Shown one piece after another: positions 3,463-58,158 of a stretch of DNA of 64,000 nt. Source of the DNA: Escherichia coli (GTDB taxonomy: Bacteria; Pseudomonadota; Gammaproteobacteria; Enterobacterales; Enterobacteriaceae); the NCBI RefSeq assembly GCF_013315695.1, contig NZ_CP054353.1. One strand, 5' to 3'. Each line of letters begins with the position of its first letter. Position 1 is the first letter of the stretch. The notes beneath the pieces were generated by a model that did not search any database, was not told the origin of the DNA, and was given only the letters and a program-made list of their open reading frames with translations. Position numbers and translations under genes: made by a program.

Positions 3463-3490
3463 ATGGCTATCCCCGTAAGGTCGTGCGCAT

Positions 3491-3535
3491 TTTCCCCCTC
3501 ACCCTAACCCTCTCCCCAGGGGGCGAGGGGACTGA
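3491..3535. repeat. GC-rich imperfect palindromic extragenic repeat (Box C-like)
   Basis: TTTCCCCCTCACCCTAACCCTCTCCCCAGGGGGCGAGGGGAC between wzxC and wcaK. Resembles the enterobacterial extragenic repeat that spuriously translates as PLTLTLSP. Family name is from memory. Confidence 0.4.
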
Positions 3536-3623
3536 TCGAGCACAGCTTTGAATATGTCACCGGTTTAACTCTTAATCATCAACCATAGCACCGACGCAAT
3601 TTAGAACTCCTTTTGAGGTCATA

Positions 3624-10052: not shown

Positions 10053-10951
10053 TGAATATCCTCCTTTTTGGCAAAACAGGGCAGGTAGGTTGGGAACTAC
10101 AGCGTGCTCTGGCACCTCTGGGTAATTTGATTGCTCTTGATGTTCACTCCACTGATTACTGTGGTGATTTTAGTAACCCTGAAGGTGTGGCTGAAACAGT
10201 CAAAAGAATTCGACCTGATGTTATTGTTAATGCTGCGGCTCACACCGCAGTAGATAAGGCTGAGTCAGAACCCGAATTTGCACAATTACTCAATGCGACT
10301 AGCGTTGAATCAATTGCAAAAGCGGCAAATGAAGTTGGGGCTTGGGTAATTCATTACTCAACTGACTACGTATTCCCTGGAAATGGCGACACGCCATGGC
10401 TGGAGATGGATGCAACCGCACCGCTAAATGTTTACGGTGAAACCAAGTTAGCTGGAGAAAAAGCATTACAAGAGCATTGTGCGAAGCACCTAATTTTCCG
10501 TACCAGCTGGGTCTATGCAGGTAAAGGAAATAATTTCGCCAAAACGATGTTGCGTCTGGCAAAAGAGCGTGAAGAACTAGCCGTTATTAATGATCAGTTT
10601 GGTGCGCCAACAGGTGCTGAACTGCTGGCTGATTGTACGGCACATGCCATTCGTGTCGCACTGAATAAACCGGATGTCGCAGGCTTGTACCATTTGGTAG
10701 CCAGTGGTACCACAACCTGGTACGATTATGCTGCGCTGGTTTTTGAAGAGGCGCGCAATGCAGGCATTCCTCTTGCACTCAACAAGCTCAACGCAGTACC
10801 AACAACTGCCTATCCTACACCAGCTCGTCGTCCACATAACTCTCGCCTTAATACAGAAAAATTTCAGCAGAATTTTGCGCTTGTATTGCCTGACTGGCAG
10901 GTTGGTGTGAAACGCATGCTCAACGAATTATTTACGACTACAGCAATTTAA
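10052..10951 (+). CDS. rfbD: dTDP-4-dehydrorhamnose reductase
   Basis: 299 aa, RmlD family. Start overlaps the rfbB stop by 1 nt. Confidence 0.95.
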   Translation: MNILLFGKTGQVGWELQRALAPLGNLIALDVHSTDYCGDFSNPEGVAETVKRIRPDVIVNAAAHTAVDKAESEPEFAQLLNATSVESIAKAANEVGAWVIHYSTDYVFPGNGDTPWLEMDATAPLNVYGETKLAGEKALQEHCAKHLIFRTSWVYAGKGNNFAKTMLRLAKEREELAVINDQFGAPTGAELLADCTAHAIRVALNKPDVAGLYHLVASGTTTWYDYAALVFEEARNAGIPLALNKLNAVPTTAYPTPARRPHNSRLNTEKFQQNFALVLPDWQVGVKRMLNELFTTTAI

Positions 10952-11008
10952 TAGTTTTTGCATCTTGTTCGTGATGGTGGAGCAAGATGAATTAAAAGGA
11001 ATGATGAA

Positions 11009-11887
11009 ATGAAAACGCGTAAAGGTATTATTTTAGCGGGTGGTTCTGGTACTCGTCTTTATCCTGTGACTATGGTCGTCAGTAAACAGCTATTACCTAT
11101 ATATGATAAACCGATGATCTATTATCCGCTTTCTACACTGATGTTAGCGGGTATTCGCGATATTCTGATTATTAGTACGCCACAGGATACTCCTCGTTTT
11201 CAACAACTGCTGGGTGACGGTAGCCAGTGGGGCCTGAATCTTCAGTACAAAGTGCAACCGAGTCCGGATGGTCTTGCGCAGGCATTTATTATCGGTGAAG
11301 AGTTTATTGGTGGTGATGATTGTGCTTTGGTACTTGGTGATAATATCTTCTACGGTCACGACCTGCCTAAGTTAATGGATGCCGCTGTTAACAAAGAAAG
11401 TGGTGCAACGGTATTTGCCTATCACGTTAATGATCCTGAACGCTATGGTGTCGTTGAGTTTGATAAAAACGGTACGGCGATCAGCCTGGAAGAAAAACCG
11501 CTACAACCAAAAAGTAATTATGCGGTAACCGGGCTTTATTTTTATGATAACGACGTTGTCGAAATGGCGAAAAATCTTAAGCCTTCTGCCCGCGGTGAAC
11601 TGGAAATTACCGATATTAACCGTATCTATATGGAACAAGGGCGTTTATCTGTTGCCATGATGGGGCGTGGTTATGCGTGGTTAGACACGGGGACACATCA
11701 GAGCCTGATTGAGGCAAGCAACTTTATTGCAACAATTGAAGAGCGTCAGGGGCTGAAAGTTTCCTGCCCGGAAGAAATTGCTTACCGTAAAGGGTTTGTT
11801 GATGCTGAGCAGGTGAAAGTATTAGCTGAACCTCTGAAAAAAAATGCTTATGGTCAGTATCTGCTGAAAATGATTAAAGGTTATTAA
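11009..11887 (+). CDS. rfbA: Glucose-1-phosphate thymidylyltransferase
   Basis: 292 aa with GGSGTRLYP motif, RmlA family. Confidence 0.95.
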
Positions 11888-11891
11888 TAAA

Positions 11892-12440
11892 ATGAACGTA
11901 ATTAAAACAGAAATTCCTGATGTACTGATTTTTGAACCGAAAGTTTTTGGTGATGAGCGTGGTTTCTTTTTTGAGAGCTTTAACCAGAAGGTTTTTGAGG
12001 AAGCTGTAGGCCGCAAAGTTGAATTTGTTCAGGATAACCATTCGAAGTCTAGTAAAGGTGTTTTACGCGGGCTGCATTATCAGTTGGAACCTTATGCACA
12101 AGGAAAATTGGTGCGTTGCGTTGTCGGTGAAGTTTTTGACGTAGCTGTTGATATTCGTAAATCGTCATCGACTTTTGGCAAATGGGTTGGGGTGAATTTA
12201 TCTGCTGAGAATAAGCGGCAATTGTGGATTCCTGAGGGATTTGCACATGGTTTTTTAGTGCTGAGTGAGACGGCGGAGTTTTTGTATAAGACGACAAATT
12301 ATTATCATCCTCAGAGTGATAGAGGAATAAAATGGGATGATCCAAGCATCAATATTTCATGGCCAGTCGATTCACAAGTGCTGCTATCAGCTAAAGATAA
12401 TAAGCATCCTCCATTAACAAAGATTGAAATGTATAGTTAA
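11892..12440 (+). CDS. rfbC: dTDP-4-dehydrorhamnose 3,5-epimerase
   Basis: 182 aa, RmlC cupin (FGDERGFFFESF, LRGLHYQ). Confidence 0.95.
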   Translation: MNVIKTEIPDVLIFEPKVFGDERGFFFESFNQKVFEEAVGRKVEFVQDNHSKSSKGVLRGLHYQLEPYAQGKLVRCVVGEVFDVAVDIRKSSSTFGKWVGVNLSAENKRQLWIPEGFAHGFLVLSETAEFLYKTTNYYHPQSDRGIKWDDPSINISWPVDSQVLLSAKDNKHPPLTKIEMYS

Positions 12441-12471
12441 GATCACGATAAATCTTGGAAGGGTTGCAAAA

Positions 12472-13710
12472 TTGAATAAAATAGTGAGCAAAAGTGAAAT
12501 AAGGAACGTAATCCACAATGCTGGCTATATGATGATTACTCAGATAGCTTTATATGTTGCACCATTATTTATACTGAGTTATCTGTTAAAAACACTGGGG
12601 GTTGCACAGTTTGGTAATTATGCCTTAATACTATCAATCGTTGCATATTTACAGATTATAACGGATTATGGTTTTTCTTTTAGTGCAAGTCGTGCGATCT
12701 CACAGAATAGAGAGGACAAAGAATATATATCAAAAATTTATCTGTCAACTATGACTATCAAGTTGGCGATATGCGCTTTCTTATTCTTATTGCTCATGCT
12801 ATTTTTAAATCTTTTGCCTGTGCAAGCTGAATTAAAACAAGGAATATTATATGGATATCTTCTTGTAATAGGAAATACTTTCCAACCACAATGGTTTTTC
12901 CAAGGTATCGAAAAATTAAAAATCATAGCCCTTTCTAATGTTATATCAAGATGCGCCGCGTGTTTACTTGTATTTATCTATGTGAGGAATAGCGAGGATT
13001 TACAAAAAGCACTTTTAGTACAGTCACTTCCATTAGTAATTTCTGCGATTGGATTAAATATATTTATATTGAAATATATCAATATTATTTTTCCGGAAAA
13101 AAAATTATTTAAGGTAATTTTAAAAGAAGGTAAGGATTTTTTTCTTGCATCACTTTATTCTGTTATTCTCAATAATAGTGGCATTTTTCTATTAGGGATT
13201 TTTACTAATCCTGTTATTGTTGGTGTATATGCCGCCGCTGAAAAGATAGTCAAGGCCGTATTGTCGCTATTTACACCACTGACGCAAGCTATATATCCTT
13301 ATAATTGTCGTAAGTTTTCACTATCCGTATTTGACGGCATTGAGGCAGCAAAAAAAACTGGTATACCAATTATAATTTTAGCATTTATAGCTGCTGTTAT
13401 CGTTGCAATTACCTTACCTGTTGCAATCGACTATCTTAATTTTCCAAAAGAAACAATTTTTGTAGGTCAAATATTAAGTGCATGGATCTTTTTTGGTGTT
13501 CTTAATAATGTATTCGGCATTCAGATATTGAGTGCATCAGGAAGAAGTAAAATATATAGTAGGATGGTATTCGTATCAGCGCTTATAACATTACTTTTGA
13601 TTACTCTATTATTGCAGTTTTGTAACGCCACTGGAGTGGCATGTGCAATATTATTGGGTGAAATGTTCTTATCAATATTGTTACTTAAGCGATATAAAAA
13701 AATAATTTAA
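12472..13710 (+). CDS. wzx: O-antigen flippase (Wzx); start uncertain
   Basis: Polytopic MOP-family membrane protein, AT-rich. Start placed at TTG 12472 after GGAAGGG. The ORF track's ATG 12424 overlaps the rfbC 3' end. Confidence 0.8.
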   Translation: MNKIVSKSEIRNVIHNAGYMMITQIALYVAPLFILSYLLKTLGVAQFGNYALILSIVAYLQIITDYGFSFSASRAISQNREDKEYISKIYLSTMTIKLAICAFLFLLLMLFLNLLPVQAELKQGILYGYLLVIGNTFQPQWFFQGIEKLKIIALSNVISRCAACLLVFIYVRNSEDLQKALLVQSLPLVISAIGLNIFILKYINIIFPEKKLFKVILKEGKDFFLASLYSVILNNSGIFLLGIFTNPVIVGVYAAAEKIVKAVLSLFTPLTQAIYPYNCRKFSLSVFDGIEAAKKTGIPIIILAFIAAVIVAITLPVAIDYLNFPKETIFVGQILSAWIFFGVLNNVFGIQILSASGRSKIYSRMVFVSALITLLLITLLLQFCNATGVACAILLGEMFLSILLLKRYKKII

Positions 13711-13719
13711 GGAATAGTT

Positions 13720-14847
13720 ATGAAGAAGTTATTATTAGTGTTCGGTACTAGGCCTGAAGCAATAAAGATGGCCTCTATCATTGAATTATTAAAAAAAGAT
13801 TGTAGATTCGAATATAAAATATGTGTGACAGGCCAACATAAAGAGATGCTTGATCAAGTTATGCAAGTATTTGATGTTAAACCTGATTATAATTTACGGA
13901 TTATGCAGCCTGGGCAAACATTAGTATCTGTAGCAACAAATATACTCTCACGGTTAAGTGAAGTTTTAATTATAGAAAAGCCAGATATTATACTTGTGCA
14001 TGGGGATACAACGACTACCCTTGCTGCTACTTTAGCTGGGTATTACCACCAAATAAAAGTTTGTCATGTGGAAGCAGGATTAAGAACAGGGGATATTTAC
14101 TCTCCTTGGCCTGAAGAGGGCAATCGTAAAGTTACAGGGGCATTAGCATGTATTCATTTCGCCCCAACAGAGAGATCAAAAGATAATCTCCTGAGGGAGG
14201 GTGTCAAAGTAAATAATATATTTGTAACGGGTAATACCGTCATCGACTCTTTATTTATTGCAAAAGATATCATAGATAATGACCCTAATATAAAGAACGC
14301 TTTACATAATAAATTTAATTTTCTTGATAAAAGCCGACGAGTAGTACTTATAACAGGTCATCGAAGAGAAAATTTCGGGAAAGGTTTTGAAGATATATGC
14401 TTTGCAATAAAGGAATTAGCTTTCATTTATCCTAATGTAGATTTTATTTATCCGGTGCATCTTAATCCCAATGTAATGGAACCAGTACATCGTATATTAG
14501 ATAATATATGTAATATTTACCTTATTGAGCCCTTGGATTATTTGCCTTTTGTTTATTTAATGAATGAGTCATATTTAATATTGACTGATTCAGGGGGGAT
14601 ACAAGAAGAAGCGCCTTCGTTAGGTAAACCGGTTTTGGTTATGCGTGATACTACTGAACGCCCTGAGGCGGTTGAGGCTGGTACTGTTGTATTAGTGGGG
14701 ACTTCTAAGATAAAAATAGTAAATAAAGTAACGGAGCTATTAAACAATGCTGATATCTACAATGCTATGTCTCTGTTACATAATCCATATGGCGATGGAA
14801 CAGCTGCTCAAAAAATTCTTAATGTGCTCGCCCAAGAGCTAATTTAA
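13720..14847 (+). CDS. UDP-N-acetylglucosamine 2-epimerase (non-hydrolysing, WecB/MnaA-like)
   Basis: 375 aa. FGTRPEAIKMA, HVEAGLRT and DSGGIQEEAPSLGKPVLVMRDTTERPE are typical of the family. Confidence 0.9.
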   Translation: MKKLLLVFGTRPEAIKMASIIELLKKDCRFEYKICVTGQHKEMLDQVMQVFDVKPDYNLRIMQPGQTLVSVATNILSRLSEVLIIEKPDIILVHGDTTTTLAATLAGYYHQIKVCHVEAGLRTGDIYSPWPEEGNRKVTGALACIHFAPTERSKDNLLREGVKVNNIFVTGNTVIDSLFIAKDIIDNDPNIKNALHNKFNFLDKSRRVVLITGHRRENFGKGFEDICFAIKELAFIYPNVDFIYPVHLNPNVMEPVHRILDNICNIYLIEPLDYLPFVYLMNESYLILTDSGGIQEEAPSLGKPVLVMRDTTERPEAVEAGTVVLVGTSKIKIVNKVTELLNNADIYNAMSLLHNPYGDGTAAQKILNVLAQELI

Positions 14848-14861
14848 TTTAAGCTAAAAAT

Positions 14862-15926
14862 ATGTTATTAATTATTGCTGATTATCCAAACGAAATGAAT
14901 ATGCGCGAGGGAGCTATGCAACGAATAGATGCGATAGACTCTCTCATTCGAGATCGCAAGCGAGTGTATTTGAATATTTCATTCAAAAAGCATCTAGTTC
15001 GCTCAAATAGTTCCTTTAATAATGTTATAGTTGAAAATCTAAATGCAATTATTCACAGAAACATCATAAAACAGTACATGCAAAAATCAACAACTATATA
15101 TGTTCATTCTGTTTATAATTTATTAAAGGTTATAACGCTCATTGATCTAAAAAAAACAATTCTTGATATACATGGTGTTGTACCGGAAGAACTTTTGGCA
15201 GATAATAAAAAATTACTTAGTAAAGTATATAACATGGTGGAAAAAAAAGGTGTCCTTGGATGCAAAAAATTAATACACGTCAGTACAGAAATGCAAAAAC
15301 ACTATGAAGCAAAATATGGAGTAAACTTGGCTGAAAGGTCAATAGTGCTCCCGATTTTTGAATATAAAAATATAACCCAATCGCAAAACAAATGGACAGA
15401 AAATAAAATACGAAGTATCTATCTTGGAGGATTACAAACATGGCAAAATATTGATAAAATGATTCAAATTTGTGATGACACAGTGATAAACAATGAAGCA
15501 GGTAAGTATGAATTCAACTTTTTCATCCCACAGAGTAACTTGGAAGGGTTTATAGATAAATATTCGTTAAAATTACATAATATCAATGCTAATGCATCTA
15601 CGCTATCACGTGATGAAGTAATTCCCTTTCTAAAAGAATGTCATATTGGTTTTGTATTGCGCGATGATATAATAGTAAACAGAGTTGCGTGCCCTACAAA
15701 ATTGGTTGAATATTTAGAGTGTGGTGTCGTTCCAGTTGTGCTCTCCCCACTTATAGGTGATTTTTATTCGATGGGATATCAATACATTACTACAGAGGAA
15801 ATGGCTAACAGAAGTATAAGTTTGTTGGATCTTGAAAAAATGGCTGCACATAATTTACAAATTTTGACTTCTTATCAGAAGAGAACCTACAAGGCACAGA
15901 AAGAACTTATTGCTCAACTGTGCTGA
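14862..15926 (+). CDS. Putative O-antigen glycosyltransferase (GT-B-like)
   Basis: 354-aa soluble AT-rich ORF inside the O-antigen block. C-terminal CPTKLVEYLECGVVPVV resembles a GT-B nucleotide-sugar binding helix. Specificity unknown. Confidence 0.6.
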   Translation: MLLIIADYPNEMNMREGAMQRIDAIDSLIRDRKRVYLNISFKKHLVRSNSSFNNVIVENLNAIIHRNIIKQYMQKSTTIYVHSVYNLLKVITLIDLKKTILDIHGVVPEELLADNKKLLSKVYNMVEKKGVLGCKKLIHVSTEMQKHYEAKYGVNLAERSIVLPIFEYKNITQSQNKWTENKIRSIYLGGLQTWQNIDKMIQICDDTVINNEAGKYEFNFFIPQSNLEGFIDKYSLKLHNINANASTLSRDEVIPFLKECHIGFVLRDDIIVNRVACPTKLVEYLECGVVPVVLSPLIGDFYSMGYQYITTEEMANRSISLLDLEKMAAHNLQILTSYQKRTYKAQKELIAQLC

Positions 15927-15977
15927 ATTTTTTACATATATAAAATTATGTAAGCATATCGCGGGTCAGGTAATTGT

Positions 15978-16982
15978 ATGCGTATCAAATATAAAGATAA
16001 CGGTTATATATTATGTTTTCTATTATGTTTCATTTTGAGCTACTTAGTTTTACTCAAATCTGACTACTTTCCTGCTGATTTTCTGCCATATACAGAAATA
16101 TACGATGGGACATACGGAGAAATCAATAATATTGAGCCTGCCTTTTTATATTTAACACGGTTGTTTCATTATTTAAATTTCCCCTATATATTTTTTGCAA
16201 TGTTAGTTTGTGCCTTATGTTTAAGTTGGAAAATAAAATATGCAAGAAAAATAATTAAAGATAGTTATATATATTTATTCTTGTATGTATATGTATCATT
16301 TTATGTGTTTTTGCATGAAATGACTCAATTGCGCATAGCAATTGCAGTCACTATGTGCTATGTGTCGGTTTATTATTACTTTTATAAAAATTGTATTAAA
16401 CATGCACTGCCATGGATGGTGTTGGCTATTTTGTTTCATTACAGCGCCTTGCTTTTATTTATGTCATTATTTATATACAGTTATAGGAGGTTATTAATAG
16501 TAATTATAGGGTTTGTAATATGTATGAGCTTTTTAAACGTGTATGCAGATACAATTGCACTATATTTGCCAAATGAAAAAATAGTAAATTATTTATATAG
16601 TATTTCATCATCATTAGACAATAGAAATGATTTGGCAATATTCAACCTGAATAATATAATATTTTTATCAATATTTATTTTGATCTTTTATCTTAGCCGA
16701 TATATAAAATTAAATGATAATGAGGCGAAGTTTATTAAGTATGTGCAATGTTCAGGAATATTAGCCTTTTGTATTTTCTTTCTGGCTAGTGGAGTCCCGG
16801 TCATTGCTTATCGAACTGCAGAGTTGCTGCGAATATTTTATCCGATGGCTTTAGTATTAATCCTTTCGCATATAAAAAATAATAATATGCGTTATTTTAT
16901 TGCAGTCATTATAGTTATCCTTTCAGGCTTAATGTTGTTTATAACACTAAGGGCTGTATCAATAGTTGGTCAAGGATTATAA
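15978..16982 (+). CDS. wzy: O-antigen polymerase (Wzy, EpsG-like)
   Basis: 334 aa, about 10 predicted hydrophobic segments, very AT-rich. Position is typical for wzy. Confidence 0.75.
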   Translation: MRIKYKDNGYILCFLLCFILSYLVLLKSDYFPADFLPYTEIYDGTYGEINNIEPAFLYLTRLFHYLNFPYIFFAMLVCALCLSWKIKYARKIIKDSYIYLFLYVYVSFYVFLHEMTQLRIAIAVTMCYVSVYYYFYKNCIKHALPWMVLAILFHYSALLLFMSLFIYSYRRLLIVIIGFVICMSFLNVYADTIALYLPNEKIVNYLYSISSSLDNRNDLAIFNLNNIIFLSIFILIFYLSRYIKLNDNEAKFIKYVQCSGILAFCIFFLASGVPVIAYRTAELLRIFYPMALVLILSHIKNNNMRYFIAVIIVILSGLMLFITLRAVSIVGQGL

Positions 16983-16983
16983 A

Positions 16984-17943
16984 ATGAATGTTGCTATTTT
17001 GTTGTCTACGTATAATGGCGAAAAATATTTAGAGGAACAACTGGATTCATTGCTGCTTCAAAGTTATCAGGATTTTGTAGTGTATATCCGTGATGACGGA
17101 TCATCTGATAGAACTGTAAATATAATAAACCAATACGTAATGAAAGATAACAGATTTATTAACGTGGGTAATTCAGAAAATCTTGGTTGTGCTGCTTCGT
17201 TTATTAATTTATTAAGAAATGCTTCAGCCGATATTTATATGTTTTGTGACCAAGATGATTATTGGCTTCCGAATAAATTACAGCGTGCTGTGGATTATTT
17301 TTCGGCTATTGATCCTTTACAACCTACCTTGTATCATTGCGATCTAAGCGTTGTTGATGAAAAACTTAATATTATACAAAATTCATTTTTGCAGCATCAG
17401 AAAATGTCAGCGTATGATTCAATGAGAAAAAATAATCTTTTCATACAAAATTTTGTTGTTGGTTGTTCATGTGCTGTTAATGCTTCACTTGCGGAATTTG
17501 TTCTTTCGCGAATTGGAGAGCAGCATGTAAAAATGATAGCTATGCATGACTGGTGGTTAGCCGTGACTGCAAAACTTTTTGGTCGAATCCATTTTGATAA
17601 TACTCAAACGATTCTTTATCGACAACATCAGGGCAATGTATTAGGTGCAAAATCATCAGGTATGATGCGTTTTATTCGATTAGGATTAAATGGGCAAGGG
17701 ATTTCGCGAGTAGTATCTTTTAGAAAAAAAGTTTGTGCGCAAAATAAGCTTCTTTTAGATGTCTATGATAAAGATTTAAATCTTGAGCAAAAAAAATCTA
17801 TCAGGCTTGTAATTGAGGGCCTTAAAGAGAACTCTTCAATTGCTGACCTTTTAAAATGTTTCTATCATGGTAGCTATATGCAAGGTTTTAAACGTAATCT
17901 TGCCTTAATATATTCAGTTCTTTACACAAAAAAAAGAAGATAG
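16984..17943 (+). CDS. Family 2 glycosyltransferase (probable rhamnosyltransferase)
   Basis: N-terminal GT-A signature (AILLSTYNGEKYLEEQLDSLLLQSY..YIRDDGSSD, CDQDD). Start placed at ATG 16984. Confidence 0.8.
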   Translation: MNVAILLSTYNGEKYLEEQLDSLLLQSYQDFVVYIRDDGSSDRTVNIINQYVMKDNRFINVGNSENLGCAASFINLLRNASADIYMFCDQDDYWLPNKLQRAVDYFSAIDPLQPTLYHCDLSVVDEKLNIIQNSFLQHQKMSAYDSMRKNNLFIQNFVVGCSCAVNASLAEFVLSRIGEQHVKMIAMHDWWLAVTAKLFGRIHFDNTQTILYRQHQGNVLGAKSSGMMRFIRLGLNGQGISRVVSFRKKVCAQNKLLLDVYDKDLNLEQKKSIRLVIEGLKENSSIADLLKCFYHGSYMQGFKRNLALIYSVLYTKKRR

Positions 17944-17952
17944 TGTATCCTT

Positions 17953-19017
17953 ATGAAAAAAATTGCTATTATCGGTACTGTTGGCATACCAGCATCATAT
18001 GGCGGATTTGAAACATTAGTTGAAAATTTAACAAGATACAATTCCTCGGGAGTTGAATATAATGTTTTTTGTTCATCGTTTCACTACAAATCCCACCAAA
18101 AAAAACATAATGGGGCCCGTTTAATTTATATTCCGCTTAAAGCCAATGGATGGCAGAGCATTGCGTATGACATAATTTCGTTAGCATATTCTATTTTTTT
18201 GAAGCCTGATGTGATTCTGATTTTAGGGGTTTCTGGTTGTTCATTTTTGCCTTTCTTCAAACTCTTAACACGCGCTAAGTTTATTACTAATATTGATGGC
18301 CTGGAATGGCGAAGAGATAAATGGAATTCAAAAGTGAAACGTTTCTTAAAATTTTCAGAAAAAATCGCAGTTCAATATTCGGATGTCGTTATTACGGATA
18401 ATGAGGCAATTTCTGAGTACGTTTTTAACGAGTATAATAAAGATAGCCGAGTTATTGCCTATGGAGGGGATCATGCATGGTTAAATACTGAGGATGTATT
18501 TACAACAAGAAATTATAAAAGCGATTACTACCTTTCTGTATGTCGTATCGAACCCGAAAACAATGTAGAATTAATTTTAAAAACATTTTCAAAGCTAAAA
18601 TATAAAATAAAATTTATTGGAAATTGGAATGGCAGCGAGTTTGGAAAGAAACTTAGGCTGCATTATTCTAACTATCCAAATATTGAAATGATTGATCCGA
18701 TTTATGATCTTCAACAATTATTTCACTTACGAAATAATTGCATAGGATATATACATGGTCATTCGGCTGGAGGAACAAACCCTTCTTTAGTCGAGGCAAT
18801 GCATTTTAGTAAACCTATATTTGCATATGATTGTAAGTTTAATAGGTACACTACTGAAAATGAAGCATGTTATTTTTCTAATGAATCTGACCTCGCAGAG
18901 AAAATCATAATGCATTGTGAGCTATCATTAGGTGTCTCTGGCACGAAAATGAAAGAAATTGCTAACCAGAAATACACTTGGAGACGAATAGCAGAAATGT
19001 ATGAGGATTGCTATTAA
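17953..19017 (+). CDS. Glycosyltransferase, DUF1972/GT4 type (RgpA/WchF-like, probable rhamnosyltransferase)
   Basis: 354 aa. N-terminus KIAIIGTVGIPASYGGFETLVENL is characteristic of DUF1972 GT4 enzymes. Confidence 0.75.
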   Translation: MKKIAIIGTVGIPASYGGFETLVENLTRYNSSGVEYNVFCSSFHYKSHQKKHNGARLIYIPLKANGWQSIAYDIISLAYSIFLKPDVILILGVSGCSFLPFFKLLTRAKFITNIDGLEWRRDKWNSKVKRFLKFSEKIAVQYSDVVITDNEAISEYVFNEYNKDSRVIAYGGDHAWLNTEDVFTTRNYKSDYYLSVCRIEPENNVELILKTFSKLKYKIKFIGNWNGSEFGKKLRLHYSNYPNIEMIDPIYDLQQLFHLRNNCIGYIHGHSAGGTNPSLVEAMHFSKPIFAYDCKFNRYTTENEACYFSNESDLAEKIIMHCELSLGVSGTKMKEIANQKYTWRRIAEMYEDCY

Positions 19018-37835: not shown

Positions 37836-39008
37836 TTGCTGTTGAAACGCCGTCTTATTATTGCTGCTTCTTTGTTCGTTTTTAATTTATCGTCTGGTTT
37901 TGCGGCGGAAAACATTCCTTTTTCACCTCAACCTCCAGAGATTCATGCCGGGTCCTGGGTATTGATGGATTACACCACCGGTCAGATTCTCACCGCGGGT
38001 AATGAGCATCAACAGCGCAATCCCGCCAGCCTGACAAAGCTGATGACGGGCTATGTCGTGGATCGCGCTATCGATAGTCATCGCATTACGCCAGACGATA
38101 TTGTCACCGTGGGGCGTGATGCGTGGGCGAAAGATAATCCGGTGTTTGTCGGTTCTTCACTGATGTTTTTGAAAGAGGGCGATCGCGTATCGGTACGTGA
38201 TTTAAGCCGTGGTTTAATTGTGGATTCCGGAAATGACGCTTGTGTTGCACTGGCTGACTATATTGCCGGTGGGCAACGGCAGTTTGTTGAAATGATGAAC
38301 AACTATGCCGAGAAGCTGCATCTCAAGGATACGCATTTTGAAACAGTGCATGGTCTGGATGCACCTGGCCAGCATAGCTCGGCTTATGATTTAGCTGTGC
38401 TTTCTCGCGCTATCATCCACGGCGAGCCCGAGTTTTATCATATGTACAGTGAGAAAAGCCTCACCTGGAACGGTATCACCCAGCAAAACCGTAACGGGTT
38501 ATTGTGGGATAAAACCATGAATGTTGACGGCCTGAAAACGGGTCATACTTCTGGTGCCGGGTTTAATCTCATTGCTTCGGCTGTAGATGGGCAGCGTCGT
38601 CTCATTGCAGTGGTAATGGGGGCTGACAGCGCAAAAGGTCGTGAGGAAGAGGCAAGAAAATTACTGCGTTGGGGTCAACAAAACTTTACTACGGTGCAAA
38701 TTTTGCACCGTGGGAAAAAGGTTGGTACGGAACGCATCTGGTATGGCGATAAAGAAAATATCGCCCTGGGAACGGAACAAGAGTTCTGGATGGTGCTACC
38801 GAAAGCCGAAATTCCACATATCAAAGCCAAATATACCCTTGATGGTAAAGAACTCACCGCGCCAATTAGCGCCCATCAGCGGGTAGGGGAAATTGAACTT
38901 TACGACCGTGATAAACAGGTGGCGCACTGGCCGCTGGTTACCCTGGAATCTGTCGGGGAAGGCAGCATGTTTTCCCGGCTGAGTGATTATTTCCACCATA
39001 AGGACTGA
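37836..39008 (+). CDS. dacD: D-alanyl-D-alanine carboxypeptidase PBP6b
   Basis: About 390 aa with TTG start. SxxK (ASLTK), SGN and KTG motifs. Confidence 0.94.
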   Translation: MLLKRRLIIAASLFVFNLSSGFAAENIPFSPQPPEIHAGSWVLMDYTTGQILTAGNEHQQRNPASLTKLMTGYVVDRAIDSHRITPDDIVTVGRDAWAKDNPVFVGSSLMFLKEGDRVSVRDLSRGLIVDSGNDACVALADYIAGGQRQFVEMMNNYAEKLHLKDTHFETVHGLDAPGQHSSAYDLAVLSRAIIHGEPEFYHMYSEKSLTWNGITQQNRNGLLWDKTMNVDGLKTGHTSGAGFNLIASAVDGQRRLIAVVMGADSAKGREEEARKLLRWGQQNFTTVQILHRGKKVGTERIWYGDKENIALGTEQEFWMVLPKAEIPHIKAKYTLDGKELTAPISAHQRVGEIELYDRDKQVAHWPLVTLESVGEGSMFSRLSDYFHHKD

Positions 39009-39092
39009 CCTTTCTTTTGCAGCAGACTGGCAGGAGTGCGAGTCTGCTCGCATAATCAACACTCATTCCTTGTGGTTTTAATATTGCAACTA

Positions 39093-39106
39093 TACTGTAT
39101 ATAAAA
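39093..39106 (+). promoter_or_regulatory. Left part of a split LexA box (TACTGTATATAAAA)
   Basis: CTG half-site retained. The position where CAG should lie is now GGT of the IS end. Confidence 0.75.
39099..39106. repeat. Target-site duplication, left copy (ATATAAAA)
   Basis: Identical to 40992..40999 and immediately outside the left inverted repeat. Confidence 0.9.
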
Positions 39107-39205
39107 GGGTCTTCCCCTGTTGTGGTGGGTGGTACATAATTGAGTGATTTTCAAACACCACACAGTACCTTTATGGTGTCTCTTTTTACATGAGAGGGAA
39201 TTCTT

Positions 39206-39724
39206 ATGAGTGTGCCGCAAACAAAAGCTGAACTGCTTTTAGCTATTGATAAAAATTTTAGTAAATTAATTAGTTACCTCAACACAATCCCACCAGAAAT
39301 TACTTCAGATAAATCAATGGACGGACACGCCAAAGGAACGGAGATGAGTGTTCGTGATCTCGTTTCGTATCTGCTTGGATGGAATGCTCTTGTTGTAAAG
39401 TGGATCGCTTCTGATGCTAAAGGTCTGCCTGTCGATTTTCCGGAAACTGGCTATAAATGGAATCAGCTTGGCCTTCTTGCTCAAAAATTTTACTCAGATT
39501 ACAGTGAGTTAAGTTATGAGTTGTTAGTAGCTGAACTTCAGACTGTAAAAAATGAGATTGTGAACCTTATTAATGATCGTACCGATGATATTTTGTATGG
39601 AAGACCATGGTACACAAAATGGACGATGGGGAGAATGATCTCATTTAACACATCTTCGCCTTACGCCAACGCTAATGGAAGATTAAGAAAGTGGGCAAAA
39701 AATAATAATATCAGTTTAAAGTAA
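39206..39724 (+). CDS. ClbS/DfsB-family (DUF1706) four-helix-bundle protein, colibactin self-protection-like
   Basis: 172 aa with GAGAGGG RBS. Motifs GHAKGT..SVRDLVSYLLGW, FPETGYKWNQLGLLAQKFY, LYGRPWYTKWTMGRMISFNTSSPYANANGRLRKW match my recollection of ClbS and its family. Confidence 0.8.
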   Translation: MSVPQTKAELLLAIDKNFSKLISYLNTIPPEITSDKSMDGHAKGTEMSVRDLVSYLLGWNALVVKWIASDAKGLPVDFPETGYKWNQLGLLAQKFYSDYSELSYELLVAELQTVKNEIVNLINDRTDDILYGRPWYTKWTMGRMISFNTSSPYANANGRLRKWAKNNNISLK

Positions 39725-39742
39725 GCTTCAGAATGAAATTAT

Positions 39743-52679: not shown

Positions 52680-52755
52680 TGGCTCCTCTGACTGGACTCG
52701 AACCAGTGACATACGGATTAACAGTCCGCCGTTCTACCGACTGAACTACAGAGGA
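52680..52755 (-). tRNA. asnV: tRNA-Asn (GUU)
   Basis: Reverse complement is TCCTCTGTAGTTCAGTCGGTAGAACGGCGGACTGTTAATCCGTATGTCACTGGTTCGAGTCCAGTCAGAGGAGCCA. Anticodon loop CTGTTAA, encoded CCA end. Confidence 0.97.
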
Positions 52756-53010
52756 ATCGTGTGAACGGGGCGCATATTAATGGCAGTGCATGGTGATGTC
52801 AAAGGGTGAAATGCATTTTTTTGTTTGTTTGCTGACAATTTCAACAAAGTGGTGAGCTTTCAATCTTATTGGGTAATGAACCATCGTGGTGCATACCCCC
52901 CTTTTATAGGGCAGGTGAATGCGACTGCTGATAAAAAGGGCCAATGACGAATCTATCATAATCTCTTATTTGACAGTTGGTTAGCTTGCGCATCAACGCT
53001 AAAATAGAAC

Positions 53011-53026
53011 TGGCAAGCATCTTGCA
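53011..53026 (+). promoter_or_regulatory. Sigma-54 promoter of nac (-24/-12 elements)
   Basis: TGGCAAGCATCTTGCA fits TGGCAC-N5-TTGCA, about 55 bp upstream of the nac ATG. nac is a known sigma-54/NtrC target. Confidence 0.8.
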
Positions 53027-53081
53027 TTCTGGTTGTAAGTAATGGCGGCACTTGGGCCGATTCTTAAAAACCGGAGGCAAC

Positions 53082-53999
53082 ATGAACTTCAGACGCCTGA
53101 AATACTTCGTAAAAATTGTAGATATTGGTAGCCTGACCCAGGCTGCTGAAGTATTGCATATCGCACAACCAGCGCTCAGCCAGCAGGTTGCCACACTGGA
53201 AGGTGAGTTAAATCAACAGCTTTTGATTCGCACAAAACGGGGCGTTACGCCAACAGGCGCCGGAAAAATTCTCTATACCCATGCACGGGCCATTTTACGT
53301 CAGTGTGAGCAGGCCCAACTGGCGGTGCATAACGTTGGTCAGTCATTATCGGGGCAAGTCTCGATTGGCTTTGCGCCAGGAACCGCTGCGTCATCCATCA
53401 CCATGCCCTTATTACAGGCGGTTCGCGCTGAATTCCCGGAGGTCGTTATCTATCTTCATGAAAATAGTGGTGCAGTGCTTAACGAAAAACTGATAAATCA
53501 CCAACTCGATATGGCGGTGATTTATGAGCATTCCCCTGTGGCTGGGGTATCCAGTCAGGCTTTGCTGAAAGAAGATCTTTTCCTGGTAGGAACTCAAGAT
53601 TGCCCGGGGCAAAGCGTTGATGTTAATGCTATTGCGCAAATGAACCTTTTTCTCCCCAGTGATTACAGCGCTGTTAGACTTCGTGTTGATGAGGCTTTTT
53701 CCCTACGGCGGCTCACGGCAAAAGTCATTGGTGAAATTGAGTCTATTGCCACGCTTACTGCAGCGATTGCCAGCGGCATGGGCGTTGCAGTATTACCTGA
53801 ATCGGCTGCGCGTTCGTTATGTGGCGCAGTAAATGGGTGGATGTCACGCATTACCACTCCTTCAATGAGTCTCTCTTTGTCCTTAAATTTACCCGCCAGA
53901 GCAAACTTGTCACCACAGGCACAGGCAGTGAAAGAGTTGTTAATGTCAGTGATTAGTTCTCCAGTGATGGAAAAAAGGCAGTGGCAATTGGTGAGCTAA
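53082..53999 (+). CDS. nac: Nitrogen assimilation control protein (LysR family)
   Basis: 305 aa from MNFRRLKYFVKIVDIGSLTQAAEVLHIAQPALSQQV, GGAGG RBS. Confidence 0.95.
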   Translation: MNFRRLKYFVKIVDIGSLTQAAEVLHIAQPALSQQVATLEGELNQQLLIRTKRGVTPTGAGKILYTHARAILRQCEQAQLAVHNVGQSLSGQVSIGFAPGTAASSITMPLLQAVRAEFPEVVIYLHENSGAVLNEKLINHQLDMAVIYEHSPVAGVSSQALLKEDLFLVGTQDCPGQSVDVNAIAQMNLFLPSDYSAVRLRVDEAFSLRRLTAKVIGEIESIATLTAAIASGMGVAVLPESAARSLCGAVNGWMSRITTPSMSLSLSLNLPARANLSPQAQAVKELLMSVISSPVMEKRQWQLVS

Positions 54000-54100
54000 G
54001 CGTTATATCGGGATGGAATAAGATGCGGGTTTTTATTATTTGTTATGCCGGGCATTAGACTTTAACAATAACGGGATATCTGAACTGCCCGGAGTTTACC

Positions 54101-55051
54101 GTGAATTTCCAACAACTAAAGATAATCCGCGAGGCTGCACGTCAGGATTACAACCTGACAGAGGTTGCGAATATGCTTTTTACCTCACAGTCAGGCGTTA
54201 GCCGTCATATTCGGGAACTGGAGGATGAACTTGGCATCGAAATATTTGTTCGACGAGGTAAGCGACTGCTGGGCATGACTGAACCGGGCAAAGCATTACT
54301 GGTCATTGCAGAACGCATTCTGAATGAAGCCAGTAATGTTCGTCGGCTCGCAGACCTGTTTACCAACGATACGTCTGGCGTTCTCACTATTGCAACGACG
54401 CATACTCAGGCACGTTATAGCTTGCCTGAGGTCATTAAAGCTTTTCGCGAACTTTTCCCGGAGGTTCGGCTGGAGCTAATCCAGGGTACACCACAGGAAA
54501 TTGCGACGTTGTTGCAAAATGGCGAAGCTGATATTGGTATCGCCAGCGAGCGTTTGAGTAATGACCCGCAGCTCGTCGCCTTCCCGTGGTTTCGTTGGCA
54601 CCATAGTTTGCTTGTTCCACTCGATCATCCCTTGACGCAAATTACACCGTTGACGCTGGAATCAATAGCGAAGTGGCCGTTAATTACTTACCGACAGGGA
54701 ATTACGGGGCGCTCACGCATTGATGACGCATTTGCCCGCAAAGGTTTGCCGGCAGATATTGTATTAAGTGCACAGGATTCTGCTGTCATTAAAACCTATG
54801 TTGCTCTTGGGCTTGGGATCGGATTAGTTGCCGAACAATCCAGCGGCGAACAAGAGGAAAAGAATTTAATCCGCCTGGATACGCGGCATCTTTTCGATGC
54901 TAATACTGTCTGGTTGGGACTGAAGCGAGGGCAACTTCAGCGTAACTATGTCTGGCGCTTTCTGGAACTTTGTAATGCAGGACTGTCAGTTGAGGATATC
55001 AAGCGCCAGGTGATGGAAAACAGTGAAGAGGAAATTGATTATCAGATATAG
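54101..55051 (+). CDS. cbl: CysB-like transcriptional activator Cbl (LysR family)
   Basis: 316 aa, GTG start, MNFQQLKIIREAARQDYNLTEVANMLFTSQSGVSRHIRELE. Confidence 0.95.
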   Translation: MNFQQLKIIREAARQDYNLTEVANMLFTSQSGVSRHIRELEDELGIEIFVRRGKRLLGMTEPGKALLVIAERILNEASNVRRLADLFTNDTSGVLTIATTHTQARYSLPEVIKAFRELFPEVRLELIQGTPQEIATLLQNGEADIGIASERLSNDPQLVAFPWFRWHHSLLVPLDHPLTQITPLTLESIAKWPLITYRQGITGRSRIDDAFARKGLPADIVLSAQDSAVIKTYVALGLGIGLVAEQSSGEQEEKNLIRLDTRHLFDANTVWLGLKRGQLQRNYVWRFLELCNAGLSVEDIKRQVMENSEEEIDYQI

Positions 55052-55054
55052 CAA

Positions 55055-55079
55055 AAAGCCCGCTATAAAAGCGGGCTTT
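55055..55079. terminator. Bidirectional terminator between cbl and asnU
   Basis: AAAGCCCGC-TATAAAA-GCGGGCTTTT. Confidence 0.8.
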
Positions 55080-55088
55080 TCAGAAATT

Positions 55089-55164
55089 TGGCTCCTCTGA
55101 CTGGACTCGAACCAGTGACATACGGATTAACAGTCCGCCGTTCTACCGACTGAACTACAGAGGA
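55089..55164 (-). tRNA. asnU: tRNA-Asn (GUU)
   Basis: 76 nt, identical to the copy at 52680..52755. Confidence 0.97.
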
Positions 55165-55324
55165 ATCGCTGTTGAGGCACATCTTAACGGCGAAAAATAT
55201 TTTGTCAAACCCGATTTTTAAATTTCCCAACTGTTTGCCGTTTCTATCAACAGTTTGTTGCATTTGCAGACAATTTGTTGGCGAAAATCTTTGCAGCTTT
55301 GCTGATTCTCCCTCATCATTTGAA

Positions 55325-56812
55325 ATGTGGTTTCACTTTCTGCAATTAAGGTCGGCTTTGAATATCTCCTCTGCTTTACGCCAGGTTGTTCACGGCACTC
55401 GCTGGCACTCTAAACGCAAGAGCTACAAAGTGTTGTTCTGGCGCGAGATAACCCCGCTTGCTGTTCCTATCTTCATGGAGAACGCCTGTGTCCTGTTGAT
55501 GGGGGTCCTGAGCACTTTTCTGGTCAGCTGGCTGGGAAAAGATGCGATGGCCGGCGTGGGGTTGGCGGACAGCTTCAATATGGTCATTATGGCTTTTTTT
55601 GCAGCTATCGATCTTGGTACTACTGTCGTTGTAGCATTTAGTCTCGGTAAGCGAGATCGACGACGAGCGAGGGTGGGGACGCGGCAGTCATTGGTGATCA
55701 TGACGTTGTTTGCCGTACTGTTGGCAACGCTAATTCATCATTTTGGCGAACAAATTATTGATTTCGTCGCGGGTGATGCCACGACAGACGTTAAAGCACT
55801 GGCGTTGACTTATCTGGAGCTGACCGTACTCAGTTATCCAGCAGCTGCCATCACTCTTATTGGTAGCGGGGCACTTCGTGGTGCAGGGAATACGAAAATA
55901 CCGCTACTGATTAACGGTAGCCTGAATATTCTTAATATTATTATTAGCGGCATATTGATTTACGGCCTTTTCTCCTGGCCGGGACTGGGATTTGTCGGGG
56001 CTGGGTTGGGTTTAACCATTTCTCGTTATATTGGCGCAGTTGCAATTTTGTGGGTGCTGGCGATTGGTTTTAATCCTGCGCTAAGGATTTCATTAAAGAG
56101 CTATTTTAAACCGCTGAATTTTAGCATTATCTGGGAAGTCATGGGGATTGGTATTCCAGCGAGTGTCGAATCAGTGCTATTTACCAGTGGTCGGTTATTA
56201 ACCCAAATGTTCGTTGCCGGGATGGGGACCAGCGTTATTGCCGGAAATTTTATCGCGTTTTCAATTGCGGCTCTTATCAACTTACCCGGAAGTGCGCTCG
56301 GTTCTGCTTCTACGATCATTACAGGCCGAAGGTTGGGGGTAGGGCAGATAGCGCAAGCAGAGATTCAGTTGCGGCATGTGTTCTGGCTGTCCACTCTTGG
56401 ATTAACGGCCATCGCCTGGCTAACGGCTCCCTTTGCCGGGGTTATGGCATCGTTTTACACCCAGGATCCACAGGTTAAACACGTCGTTGTGATTCTGATT
56501 TGGCTAAATGCTTTATTTATGCCTATTTGGTCCGCCTCATGGGTGCTACCCGCTGGATTTAAGGGTGCTCGTGATGCCCGTTACGCCATGTGGGTTTCTA
56601 TGTTGAGCATGTGGGGTTGCCGGGTTGTAGTCGGTTATGTGCTGGGAATCATGCTTGGCTGGGGTGTGGTTGGTGTCTGGATGGGAATGTTTGCCGACTG
56701 GGCTGTGCGGGCCGTGCTGTTTTACTGGCGAATGGTTACTGGACGTTGGCTGTGGAAATACCCTCGACCCGAGCCGCAAAAGTGTGAAAAAAAGCCAGTT
56801 GTGTCGGAATAA
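55325..56812 (+). CDS. yeeO: MATE-family efflux transporter YeeO
   Basis: 495 aa from MWFHFLQLRS. The ORF-track start at 55172 would abut the tRNA and is rejected. Confidence 0.9.
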   Translation: MWFHFLQLRSALNISSALRQVVHGTRWHSKRKSYKVLFWREITPLAVPIFMENACVLLMGVLSTFLVSWLGKDAMAGVGLADSFNMVIMAFFAAIDLGTTVVVAFSLGKRDRRRARVGTRQSLVIMTLFAVLLATLIHHFGEQIIDFVAGDATTDVKALALTYLELTVLSYPAAAITLIGSGALRGAGNTKIPLLINGSLNILNIIISGILIYGLFSWPGLGFVGAGLGLTISRYIGAVAILWVLAIGFNPALRISLKSYFKPLNFSIIWEVMGIGIPASVESVLFTSGRLLTQMFVAGMGTSVIAGNFIAFSIAALINLPGSALGSASTIITGRRLGVGQIAQAEIQLRHVFWLSTLGLTAIAWLTAPFAGVMASFYTQDPQVKHVVVILIWLNALFMPIWSASWVLPAGFKGARDARYAMWVSMLSMWGCRVVVGYVLGIMLGWGVVGVWMGMFADWAVRAVLFYWRMVTGRWLWKYPRPEPQKCEKKPVVSE

Positions 56813-56912
56813 ACGACAAAGTGCAGATTATTTCAGCAAACGATTTCAAATTTAAAAAACAGGCTTTGACATTGTGGATGGGCATCGCTAATATTCGCCT
56901 CGTTCTCACGAT

Positions 56913-56988
56913 TCCTCTGTAGTTCAGTCGGTAGAACGGCGGACTGTTAATCCGTATGTCACTGGTTCGAGTCCAGTCAGAGGAGCCA
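56913..56988 (+). tRNA. asnW: tRNA-Asn (GUU)
   Basis: 76 nt, identical to the other two copies but on the opposite strand. Confidence 0.97.
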
Positions 56989-57050
56989 AATTTTAGTTTT
57001 GAGACATCTCTATGAGTCTCAGGACAGTTAAAAAATAAAAATTATTTTTA

Positions 57051-57084
57051 CCCGGTCACTTTGTAAAAAAGTGGCCGGGTTTTT
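57051..57084 (+). terminator. Terminator after asnW
   Basis: CCCGGTCAC..GTGGCCGGG stem (one G-U pair) followed by TTTTT. Confidence 0.7.
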
Positions 57085-57441
57085 GATTTCTGTGTTTCGT
57101 GCGCTTAATCGAGTCTCACGCTTCAGTGAGCAAATTGCCCCTCCCCAACAGACATCACGATTCACAAGGTCAAAAATTCTGTTCCATGAAGTACCGTACA
57201 AAGATAAAGAGAAAAATGCCTTATGCGGGATGTAGCTGTCGCGTCTTTATCGGGAAACTATACGTAATTGCCACTTTGTCTTCGGTAATCAGAAAAAGAA
57301 GACCTGCCATTTTAATAAATATTATTTCTCTGGGAACGGGGATTTTTTATAAGCAATATGACGAGTTAAACATTATATTTTTATAAGGATTATATGAGAT
57401 TAAAGAAATCTGCCATAAAGACAGATTTCTTTAACATATAA

Positions 57442-58158
57442 TTAGAGATTTGCGACGTTATGATAAACTTTTTGTACATCGTCGTCATCTTCAAGGGCAT
57501 CAACAAGCCCTTCAAAGATTTCTAAATCTTCTGGGGAAAGCTCAACTTCAGATTGAGCAATCATTTCTAATTCTGTTGTTGAGAACTCAGTGATTCCAGC
57601 TGCTTTTAGCGCCGCGATTCCTTTATGAAGGTCAGTAGGTTCAGTATAAATAACAATATTACCTTCTTCTTCAGTTACATCACGAACATCAATTTCAGCT
57701 TCAAGCAAAATTTCAAAAATATGGTCAGGGTCTGTTCCTTTAAATACAATCACCCCCGTATTGTCAAACATATAGCTGACAGAACCTGCCGCTCCGATAT
57801 TGCCGCCTTTTTTATTGAAAATTGTGCGAACGTTAGCAATCGTACGGTTAACATTTGAAGTCAATGTCTCAGCAATAATCATTGAGCCATTAGGACCAAA
57901 GCCTTCATAACGTCCCTGTACGAACGTTTCATCTCCACCGCCTTTGGCTTTATCAATTGCTTTATCAATAACGTGCTTTGGAACTTGTGCCTGCTTTGCA
58001 CGTTCAATAACGAATTTTAAAGATGTGTTTAATTCTGGATCGGGTTCACCTTGTTTGGCAGCAGCATAGATTTCTACACCGAATTTTGCATAAATTTTAG
58101 ACGTTGCACCGTCTTTAGCCGTTTTTTTAGCAACAATATTGGCCCATTTACGTCCCAC
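57442..58158 (-). CDS. yeeN: YebC/PmpR-family transcriptional regulator YeeN
   Basis: 238 aa from [17 protein letters not shown]. The gene is visibly AT-rich. Confidence 0.92.

Follow-up and report, generated by a model that had tools for sequence, protein, structure and literature searches.

A ClbS-like gene carried by ISEc53 in the LexA operator of sbmC in Escherichia coli, and the apparent preference of its vehicle for LexA boxes

The locus and its mobile element

The DNA analysed here, referred to as the window, comprises 64,000 nucleotides of Escherichia coli (contig NZ_CP054353.1, RefSeq assembly GCF_013315695.1) and contains a clbS-like gene between dacD and sbmC. Table 1 lists the features of the locus. 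The gene lies inside an insertion sequence (IS) named ISEc53 in RefSeq, which measures 1885 bp (39107..40991), its borders being taken from comparison with the empty site of K-12 and from a repeat search. The terminal inverted repeats, left (IRL) and right (IRR), are imperfect, with 18 of their 23 positions matching. An exact 8-bp duplication, ATATAAAA, was observed on both sides of the element, and the K-12 empty site is contiguous. The clbS-like open reading frame (ORF) begins with ATG and is preceded by a Shine-Dalgarno-like motif (GAGGG), while the transposase encoded next to it matched the Pfam models DDE_Tnp_ISL3, HTH_Tnp_ISL3 and Zn_ribbon_ISL3, as well as the NCBIfam model transpos_ISL3 (328 bits).

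Alignment with two related ISL3 elements, ISKox3 and ISCfr12 (1316 bp; transposase DNA 85-88% identical to that of ISEc53), delimited the region that contains the gene. The three elements have the first 25 bp (IRL) in common, followed in ISEc53 by approximately 570 extra bp that form a cassette with a 5' leader and the clbS-like gene, ahead of the common transposase start. The passenger gene is what ISKox3 and ISCfr12 lack; they agree with ISEc53 in their terminal repeats, in the 8-bp duplication and in being inserted in CTGT-N8-ACAG. Furthermore, the 1885-bp unit, passenger included, recurs with different flanks and different duplications, at sites that include fimB in sequence type (ST) 131, the plasmid pUTI89, dinD, symE, umuDC and prophages. 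A total of 30 distinct left flanks was obtained, the length being 1885 bp wherever both ends were found, and at least 203 plasmids, from E. coli, Klebsiella and Enterobacter, carry a full-length copy. Given the borders, the duplication, the recurrence elsewhere and the comparison with cargo-less relatives, the clbS-like gene is mobile cargo of ISEc53. An earlier reading of the window, made from its sequence only (the sequence-only reading), had described an orphan gene that looked like stand-alone protection; the gene is, however, no stand-alone chromosomal gene and travels as the passenger of a 1885-bp mobile element.

Table 1. Features of the clbS-like locus and of the asnW region, in window coordinates (., no strand)
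Feature	Coordinates	Strand	Basis
dacD (D-Ala-D-Ala carboxypeptidase), left neighbour	37842..39008	+	ORF; RefSeq annotation in Nissle 1917 and MSB1_4I, where the locus is identical
Putative sbmC -10, CTATACT (39090..39096), sigma-S-like	39090..39098	+	Consensus reading only; overlaps the left half-site CTGT (39095..39098)
Left copy of the 8-bp duplication, ATATAAAA, equal to the spacer of the sbmC LexA box	39099..39106	.	Sequence against the K-12 empty site
IRL of ISEc53, GGGTCTTCCCCTGTTGTGGTGGG	39107..39129	+	Repeat search; same end at every other copy
clbS-like passenger gene	39206..39724	+	ORF of 172 aa; WP_000115885.1; identical to PDB 5COF (EcDfsB)
ISL3-family DDE transposase of ISEc53, 406 aa, WP_000343765.1	39743..40963	+	Pfam, NCBIfam, RefSeq name
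IRR of ISEc53, ...CCCACCATGATCGGGGAAGACCC	40969..40991	-	Repeat search
Right copy of the duplication, ATATAAAA (40992..40999), and right LexA half-site ACAG (41000..41003)	40992..41003	.	Sequence
sbmC (gyrI), DNA gyrase inhibitor	41020..41493	+	NCBIfam PRK10016 SbmC, E=1.2e-90; RefSeq
tRNA-Asn asnW, usual pks attachment site, unoccupied	56913..56988	+	ARAGORN and gene order; occupied state in Nissle 1917
yeeN, 453 bp past asnW	57442..58158	-	Gene order

Integration into LexA operators

In K-12, the empty site reads tactgtATATAAAAacagtat and contains TACTGT ATATAAAA ACAGTA, which is the CTGT-N8-ACAG LexA box of sbmC. The target reconstructed from the window, CTGTATATAAAAACAG, is located upstream of sbmC and fits the same pattern. 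ISEc53 sits exactly between the half-sites (CTGT, ATATAAAA, ACAG), with the spacer duplicated and the operator split, and an intact CTGT-N8-ACAG was found nowhere in the 64-kb window.

Annotated records and look-ups of the exact protein supplied the remaining ISEc53 targets, together with a metagenome scan and a viral scan with the 30-nt IRL; this set covers all reachable copies. CTGT was present at exactly -12 to -9 in 27 of the 30 distinct left flanks, with per-position counts of 28 (C), 29 (T), 30 (G) and 27 (T), and the consensus of the spacer was (AT)4. Both flanks were available for 18 sites, 12 of which showed an exact CTGT-N8-ACAG and 15 identical 8-bp duplications. As background, the motif was encountered twice in 226 kb of E. 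coli sequence and 0.6 times per 64 kb in shuffled sequence. We conclude with high confidence that ISEc53 integrates into the 8-bp spacer of LexA operators.

ISL3-family elements are generally held to prefer AT-rich or palindromic 8-bp targets, and the position in the sbmC box could accordingly be regarded as the chance landing of an AT-preferring IS. Two ISEc53 sites outside LexA boxes, one in the puu region and one in fimB (TGG-(AT)4-ACA), agree with such an explanation. It is nevertheless highly improbable: the expectation for CTGT in this register is 1/256 at each of the 30 independent sites, of which 27 carry it, and ACAG is found symmetrically on the other side. In addition, known SOS genes are occupied repeatedly, the sbmC box was entered twice in opposite orientations, and the same targeting is observed in ISKox3, ISCfr12 and elements of Yersinia and Providencia.

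The sbmC box was found occupied in one orientation in the window and in the opposite one at a second locus. Other occupied operators were those of chromosomal umuDC and dinD, the dinI-umuDC intergenic region and the entD-ybdK (hokE) region, together with two different plasmid operons of the dinI-like/umuD-like type, a Mu-like prophage and a lambdoid prophage; the site at symE is a near-match (CTGG...TCAG). Among these, dinD and symE are named by RefSeq, and the umuDC, hokE-region and prophage sites (NZ_CM127763.1) by Pfam content and synteny only. E. coli M1/5 (NZ_CP053296.1) carries at least two copies, upstream of dinD and of symE, and the copy on pUTI89 sits in the LexA box of a dinI-like/umuD-like operon. 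No orientation bias was observed among the insertions, as expected from a palindromic target.

The fimB and puu-region sites are the exceptions to the LexA-box rule. In K-12, the empty fimB site reads ATGG-ATATATAT-ACAC, a degenerate LexA-like palindrome, and the right-hand duplication of the ST131 fimB copy is 3 nt short. The classical fimB::ISL3 insertion of ST131 is ISEc53, and the fimB insertion of this lineage therefore carries the clbS-like gene. At two metagenome contigs the left and right duplications were mismatched, for example where the left flank came from an unknown box and the right one from pUTI89 or fimB, indicating recombination between IS copies.

The same type of target was found for cargo-less relatives, with exact 8-bp duplications in ISKox3, ISCfr12 and the elements with 64-73% identity. 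On the IncX3 blaNDM plasmid pNDM-20, ISKox3 (2434..3749) is inserted in CTGT ATGCATAT ACAG, upstream of a truncated umuD-like gene, and on a Klebsiella plasmid ISCfr12 occupies CTGT ATATATAT ACAG. A Yersinia element with 73% transposase identity is found in CTGT-N8-ACAG at 4/4 copies, one of them upstream of dinI, and a Providencia element with 64% identity is also found in CTGT-N8-ACAG. The Sodalis element ISSoEn4, located beside uvrD and decayed at its right end, shows a near-match only. The targeting was traced down to approximately 64% transposase identity; an Achromobacter element (46%) is without delimited ends. Thus, ISEc53, ISKox3, ISCfr12 and their relatives in Yersinia, Providencia and Sodalis appear to be “SOS-box hunters”, directed into the 8-bp spacers of LexA operators.

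Decayed relics of the cargo-bearing form were also observed, in an island-like context, in Providencia stuartii and Proteus mirabilis (locus positions 3898..4628). They retain an IRL-like end, followed by a clbS-like gene with 90% identity and approximately 95 bp of dead transposase. Two further loci of this relic type again present CTGT plus 8 nt as the left flank.

Targeting could proceed through a transposase that reads the CTGT/ACAG half-sites, or through DNA that is bound, or has been vacated, by LexA. A literature search, with ISfinder and the subscription literature outside it, returned no description of LexA-operator targeting by ISL3 elements. The joint proposal that the targeting is previously undescribed and also coupled to the state of LexA and the SOS response is tentative, and we consider it more apt to fail than to hold. 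Should LexA occupancy mask or mark the target, DNA damage would act as the gate for transposition, and the element would jump when the SOS response is on. Landing would then favour the SOS-regulated operons of conjugative plasmids and prophages under mobilisation, each insertion would rewire one SOS gene, and ISEc53 would disseminate a gene for genotoxin resistance at the very time of exposure to genotoxins. This offers a directly testable connection of DNA damage with transposition and with the dissemination of such a gene across lineages of extraintestinal pathogenic E. coli.

A LexA-targeting clade would also explain several known arrangements, namely the constant position of ISKox3 beside the “split umuD” of IncX3 blaNDM plasmids, the clbS-like gene's occurrence beside a dinI/umuD-like operon on pUTI89-type plasmids, and the fimB insertion of ST131, which would be an off-target event at a LexA-like (AT)4 palindrome. 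The passenger gene adds little by itself, and the vehicle may matter more. The locus appears more interesting than first reported because its vehicle belongs to an ISL3 clade with apparent LexA-operator targeting.

Each insertion destroys an SOS operator (sbmC, umuDC, dinD, dinI, symE), so that mutagenesis, gyrase protection and toxin expression may vary among carriers. In the window, sbmC, described in the literature as induced by SOS and in stationary phase, is now 1.9 kb away from its operator and promoter region, and its SOS regulation is probably altered in this lineage. The putative -10 of sbmC stays 5' of the IS and the operator is lost, so transcription should enter the IRL and read through the clbS-like gene. 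A pattern scan detected no terminator-like site on the + strand inside ISEc53, and from this arrangement we infer that the passenger would be transcribed from the operator-less sbmC promoter.

The product of sbmC is GyrI-like, and two “genotoxin-defence” folds are therefore adjacent at this locus. The GyrI-like family includes the cyclopropanoid hydrolases YtkR7 and lin2189, whereas SbmC is without the catalytic residues and the activity (Yuan et al. 2017). Given the operator targeting, the adjacency looks coincidental.

The ClbS-like passenger protein

The passenger protein matched the Pfam family PF08020 (DUF1706) with E=3e-54 and 183.9 bits, well above the cut-off of 24.2. The match spans residues 1-165 on profile positions 1-166, i.e. 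the protein is a full-length member of the family; an NCBIfam search with the same protein gave no match. In a BLASTP alignment with ClbS of the pks-positive strain Nissle 1917 (WP_000290498), 54% of the positions were identical (89/166; one gap, E=7e-66). The likeness to ClbS along the whole length of the 172-aa product, proposed in the sequence-only reading, was thus borne out, and the four blocks it quoted as common to ClbS (GHAKGT, SV..LVSYL.GW, FPE.G.KWN.LG.LAQKFY and LYG.PWY.KWT.GRMI.FNT.SPY.NA.GRL.K) are all present in the BLASTP alignment.

That reading had also singled out a tyrosine at residue 55 as the position of catalytic importance in ClbS. Tyr55 of the passenger pairs with Tyr55 of ClbS in the alignments, and, in an alignment of 17 diverse family members with identities as low as 49%, it is invariant together with 35 further columns, all of them kept in the passenger. 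Tyr55 is likewise invariant in a set of 36 homologues. According to a source citing Tripathi 2017, Tyr55 of ClbS is critical for cyclopropane hydrolase activity, and the mutant no longer protects cells. Tyr55 is the residue tied here to the literature, and the remaining active-site residues were judged by conservation alone. The passenger is a genuine, full-length ClbS/DUF1706 homologue that retains the catalytic Tyr55.

At the structural level, phmmer against PDB identified the passenger as 5COF, identical over 172 aa (E=1e-114), and matched the ClbS structures 6ANR, 7MTL and 7MTT at E=1.1e-55. The AlphaFold (AF2) model, with a predicted local distance difference test (pLDDT) value of 91.3, superimposed on 5COF with a template modelling (TM) score of 0.93 and on ClbS 6ANR with 0.89. 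The identity with 5COF and the AF2 superpositions assign the protein to the DinB-like four-helix bundle fold. In addition, Foldseek matched the model to DfsB (5CIV), a bacteriocin precursor, with a TM score of 0.80 and 26% identity.

The last match raises the alternative that the passenger, like DfsB in Paenibacillus dendritiformis, serves as the precursor of a secreted bacteriocin of the sibling-lethal-factor kind. DUF1706 family and fold are common to both proteins, and Taylor et al. (2016) gave the E. coli protein the name EcDfsB. Those authors were, however, without evidence of cleavage of EcDfsB to a toxin. The phmmer match to DfsB begins only at residue 34, and at 26% identity DfsB is far more distant from the passenger than ClbS is (54%). 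By inspection, the N-terminus (MSVPQTKAELL) contains no hydrophobic stretch resembling a signal peptide. A bacteriocin precursor is therefore scarcely credible, and we retain the assignment of the passenger as a ClbS-type protein.

Relation to pks, function and known systems

ARAGORN identified three tRNA-Asn genes in the window, the one at 56913..56988 being asnW since it stands directly after yeeO. The sequence-only reading had named asnW as the usual integration site of pks, and this was right, because beyond the equivalent tRNA in Nissle 1917 an integrase is followed by clbS...clbA. It had also noted that only about 450 bp separate asnW from yeeN; we measured 453 bp, with no pks, and asnW, asnU and asnV within the window are all without an insert. 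An empty asnW is the common state, observed in 4970 of the 5426 complete E. coli genomes that formed the base of our census. The passenger gene is located between dacD and sbmC inside the IS, not at the end of a clbA-clbS cluster beside the asnW integrase, and it is therefore not ClbS proper.

Beyond the window, NZ_OZ547117.1 was examined for pks at all four of its asn-tRNA sites. This closest complete genome, of isolate AF3 from a UK blood culture, is 100% identical at three sampled stretches of the window. In this genome asnV, asnU and asnW are empty, and the fourth site, asnT, holds only the yersiniabactin island. It is likely that pks is absent from the rest of the window's own genome.

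Several side observations concern these regions. The orientation of nac-cbl-yeeO between the asn tRNAs in Nissle 1917 is the reverse of that in the window (52680..58158), and in Nissle 1917 pks ends beside ldtA with IS3 remnants. The window also contains an O1-type O-antigen cluster (8967..19017; wzx and wzy are “O1 family” in matching RefSeq records), common to 91 of the 5426 genomes. In NZ_OZ547117.1, the region beyond the window end (starting with window positions 62868..63977) encodes shiA and a glycosyltransferase family 9 (GT9) gene, followed by pseudogenised immunoglobulin-like/inverse-autotransporter fragments. The yersiniabactin island at asnT follows these fragments, with irp1 and irp2 annotated as frameshifted in the assembly.

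The clbS-like gene was identified in 674 of the 5426 genomes, and the clbS of pks in 297. The places of the clbS-like gene number 678 on chromosomes and 260 on plasmids, and a single genome holds up to 9 copies. The clbS-like gene is near-invariant in E. coli (722 of 732 records at least 99% identical), and its exact sequence occurs on at least 1000 contigs. The dacD junction of the window was found in 79 genomes only. This rules out the dacD-sbmC insertion as the site of most carriers; the majority of chromosomal copies lie elsewhere, for example in fimB of ST131. The stretch 39000..41000, flanks included, is 100% identical in the pks-positive strains Nissle 1917, ATCC 25922 (NZ_CP009072.1) and M16807. 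Co-occurrence with pks was assessed from these three named examples and the preprint of Maklin et al. (2025). Since the identical insertion is found in pks-positive producers, its presence in the window is no signature of bystander adaptation. The clbS-like gene is a near-invariant mobile gene of producers and non-producers alike, and not a private adaptation of bystanders.

These observations divide the function proposed in the sequence-only reading, stand-alone protection in a probable non-producer. One part stands: the gene is unlinked to pks, it encodes a full ClbS homologue with Tyr55, and protection of non-producers by ClbS-like proteins is published. The reading as an adaptation of a bystander does not, given the same gene and insertion in pks-positive producers. 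Defence of an orphan bystander would thus be plausible but not specific.

Our favoured explanation, to which we assign a probability of roughly three in four, is that the passenger is a cytoplasmic ClbS-type cyclopropane hydrolase that inactivates the warhead of colibactin or a related one, brought to the locus by an operator-seeking IS. ISEc53 combines an ISKox3-type transposase module with the clbS-like cassette of approximately 570 bp, placed between the IRL and the transposase start. The element has transposed into the sbmC LexA operator, whose 8-bp spacer is now duplicated and whose half-sites are parted, and the gene is present in the window because of this transposition and not through any link to pks. 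The cytoplasmic protein would hydrolyse the electrophilic cyclopropane of colibactin, or of a close genotoxin, on its arrival in the cytoplasm by means of Tyr55. With the warhead hydrolysed, fewer DNA cross-links would form and less SOS and prophage induction would follow, while sbmC would be deregulated through the loss of its operator. The enzymatic activity and the protection attributed to the passenger itself are derived from homology: in Silpe et al. (2022), all of the ClbS-like proteins assayed (12/12), with identities to ClbS of 27-80%, gave E. coli protection from colibactin. The supplementary table of that study lists WP_000115885.1 at 53.6% identity to ClbS, and the proteins assayed were other homologues, including E. 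albertii WP_000115842 (168 aa), E. coli 69 QDM73539 (172 aa), one from Dickeya dadantii and others. The E. albertii protein was considered as a near-identical counterpart of the window protein and ruled out, being a different homologue of 168 aa.

Several points weigh against the favoured explanation. ClbS is also reported in the literature to bind DNA, so hydrolysis may not be the sole activity. Nissle 1917, ATCC 25922 and M16807 carry the clbS of pks in addition to the passenger, which is unexpected for pure bystander defence. Members of the subfamily (70-90% identity) are widely distributed among Enterobacterales, such as Dickeya, Rahnella, Proteus and Citrobacter, for which contact with colibactin is not known, and more distant relatives are found in marine Flavobacteriia and in Rhizobiales; given this wide distribution, the natural substrate may be broader than colibactin or differ from it. 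A consensus promoter scan detected no convincing sigma-70 promoter inside ISEc53 upstream of the clbS-like gene, and the preprint of Maklin et al. (2025) itself calls for experiments on clbS-like genes.

Some of these points agree with another explanation, in which the passenger detoxifies a different electrophilic product, or protects DNA against it or against another stress, and owes its spread in E. coli mainly to the IS, to pUTI89-like plasmids and to the expansion of clones, and less to selection exerted by colibactin producers. Members of the subfamily are frequent in bacteria of plants, soil, insects and the sea, the passenger co-occurs with clbS in producers, and the DNA binding of ClbS would provide the second activity. 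Furthermore, the near-invariance of the E. coli records together with an active IS is consistent with recent hitch-hiking. However, every ClbS-like protein assayed protects against colibactin, even at 27% identity, Tyr55 and the surrounding motif are invariant, and the fold of the passenger is nearly superimposable on that of ClbS. We therefore regard a different substrate or stress as unlikely, and favour hydrolysis of the colibactin warhead or a related one.

The gene itself is already catalogued, and the window contains one more copy of a known ClbS-like gene, the part of which in colibactin ecology is being debated. The structure 5COF is that of EcDfsB from the plasmid pUTI89 of E. coli UTI89, described without an assigned function in the context of bacteriocin precursors (Taylor et al. 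2016). EcDfsB and the window protein are identical in amino acids, and the pUTI89 copy is ISEc53 at 99.9% DNA identity; it differs from the window copy in being plasmid-borne and located in the LexA box of the dinI-like/umuD-like operon. In the preprint of Maklin et al. (2025), clbS-like genes with one ISL3 transposase next to them, both chromosomal and plasmid-borne, were found in ST131, ST69 and ST95, and the carriers include many pks-positive isolates as well as pks-negative E. coli. Their “clbS-like 1” and the ClbS-like proteins that Silpe et al. (2022) described from pks-negative bacteria belong to the same gene family as the window passenger. These two studies give no IS borders, sbmC site or LexA-box targeting, and the words sbmC and dacD were not found in them. 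A 2026 preprint follows “ClbS-like-1” in gut metagenomes.

In comparison with ClbS (WP_000290498; 6ANR, 7MTL), the passenger shares the Pfam family, the four-helix bundle, Tyr55 and the motifs GHAKGT, LVSYLxGW and FPExGxKWNxLGxLAQKFY. It differs in 46% of its residues and in being IS-borne, away from pks and present in both producers and non-producers. The GyrI-like hydrolases YtkR7 and lin2189 represent a case of analogous chemistry, in which the cyclopropane warhead of a DNA-alkylating compound is hydrolysed for self-protection, but their fold is unrelated to the ClbS type.

Regarding the vehicle, other target-specific elements include IS1397 and ISKpn1, which enter the palindromes of repetitive extragenic palindromic sequences and bacterial interspersed mosaic elements (REP/BIME), the IS1111-attC elements, and the “res hunters” Tn5053 and Tn402. 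They resemble ISEc53 in the use of a short, conserved, functional palindrome that is also found on plasmids and phages and offers a safe, transmissible harbour. ISEc53 differs from all of them in its target, which is the operator of the SOS repressor LexA.

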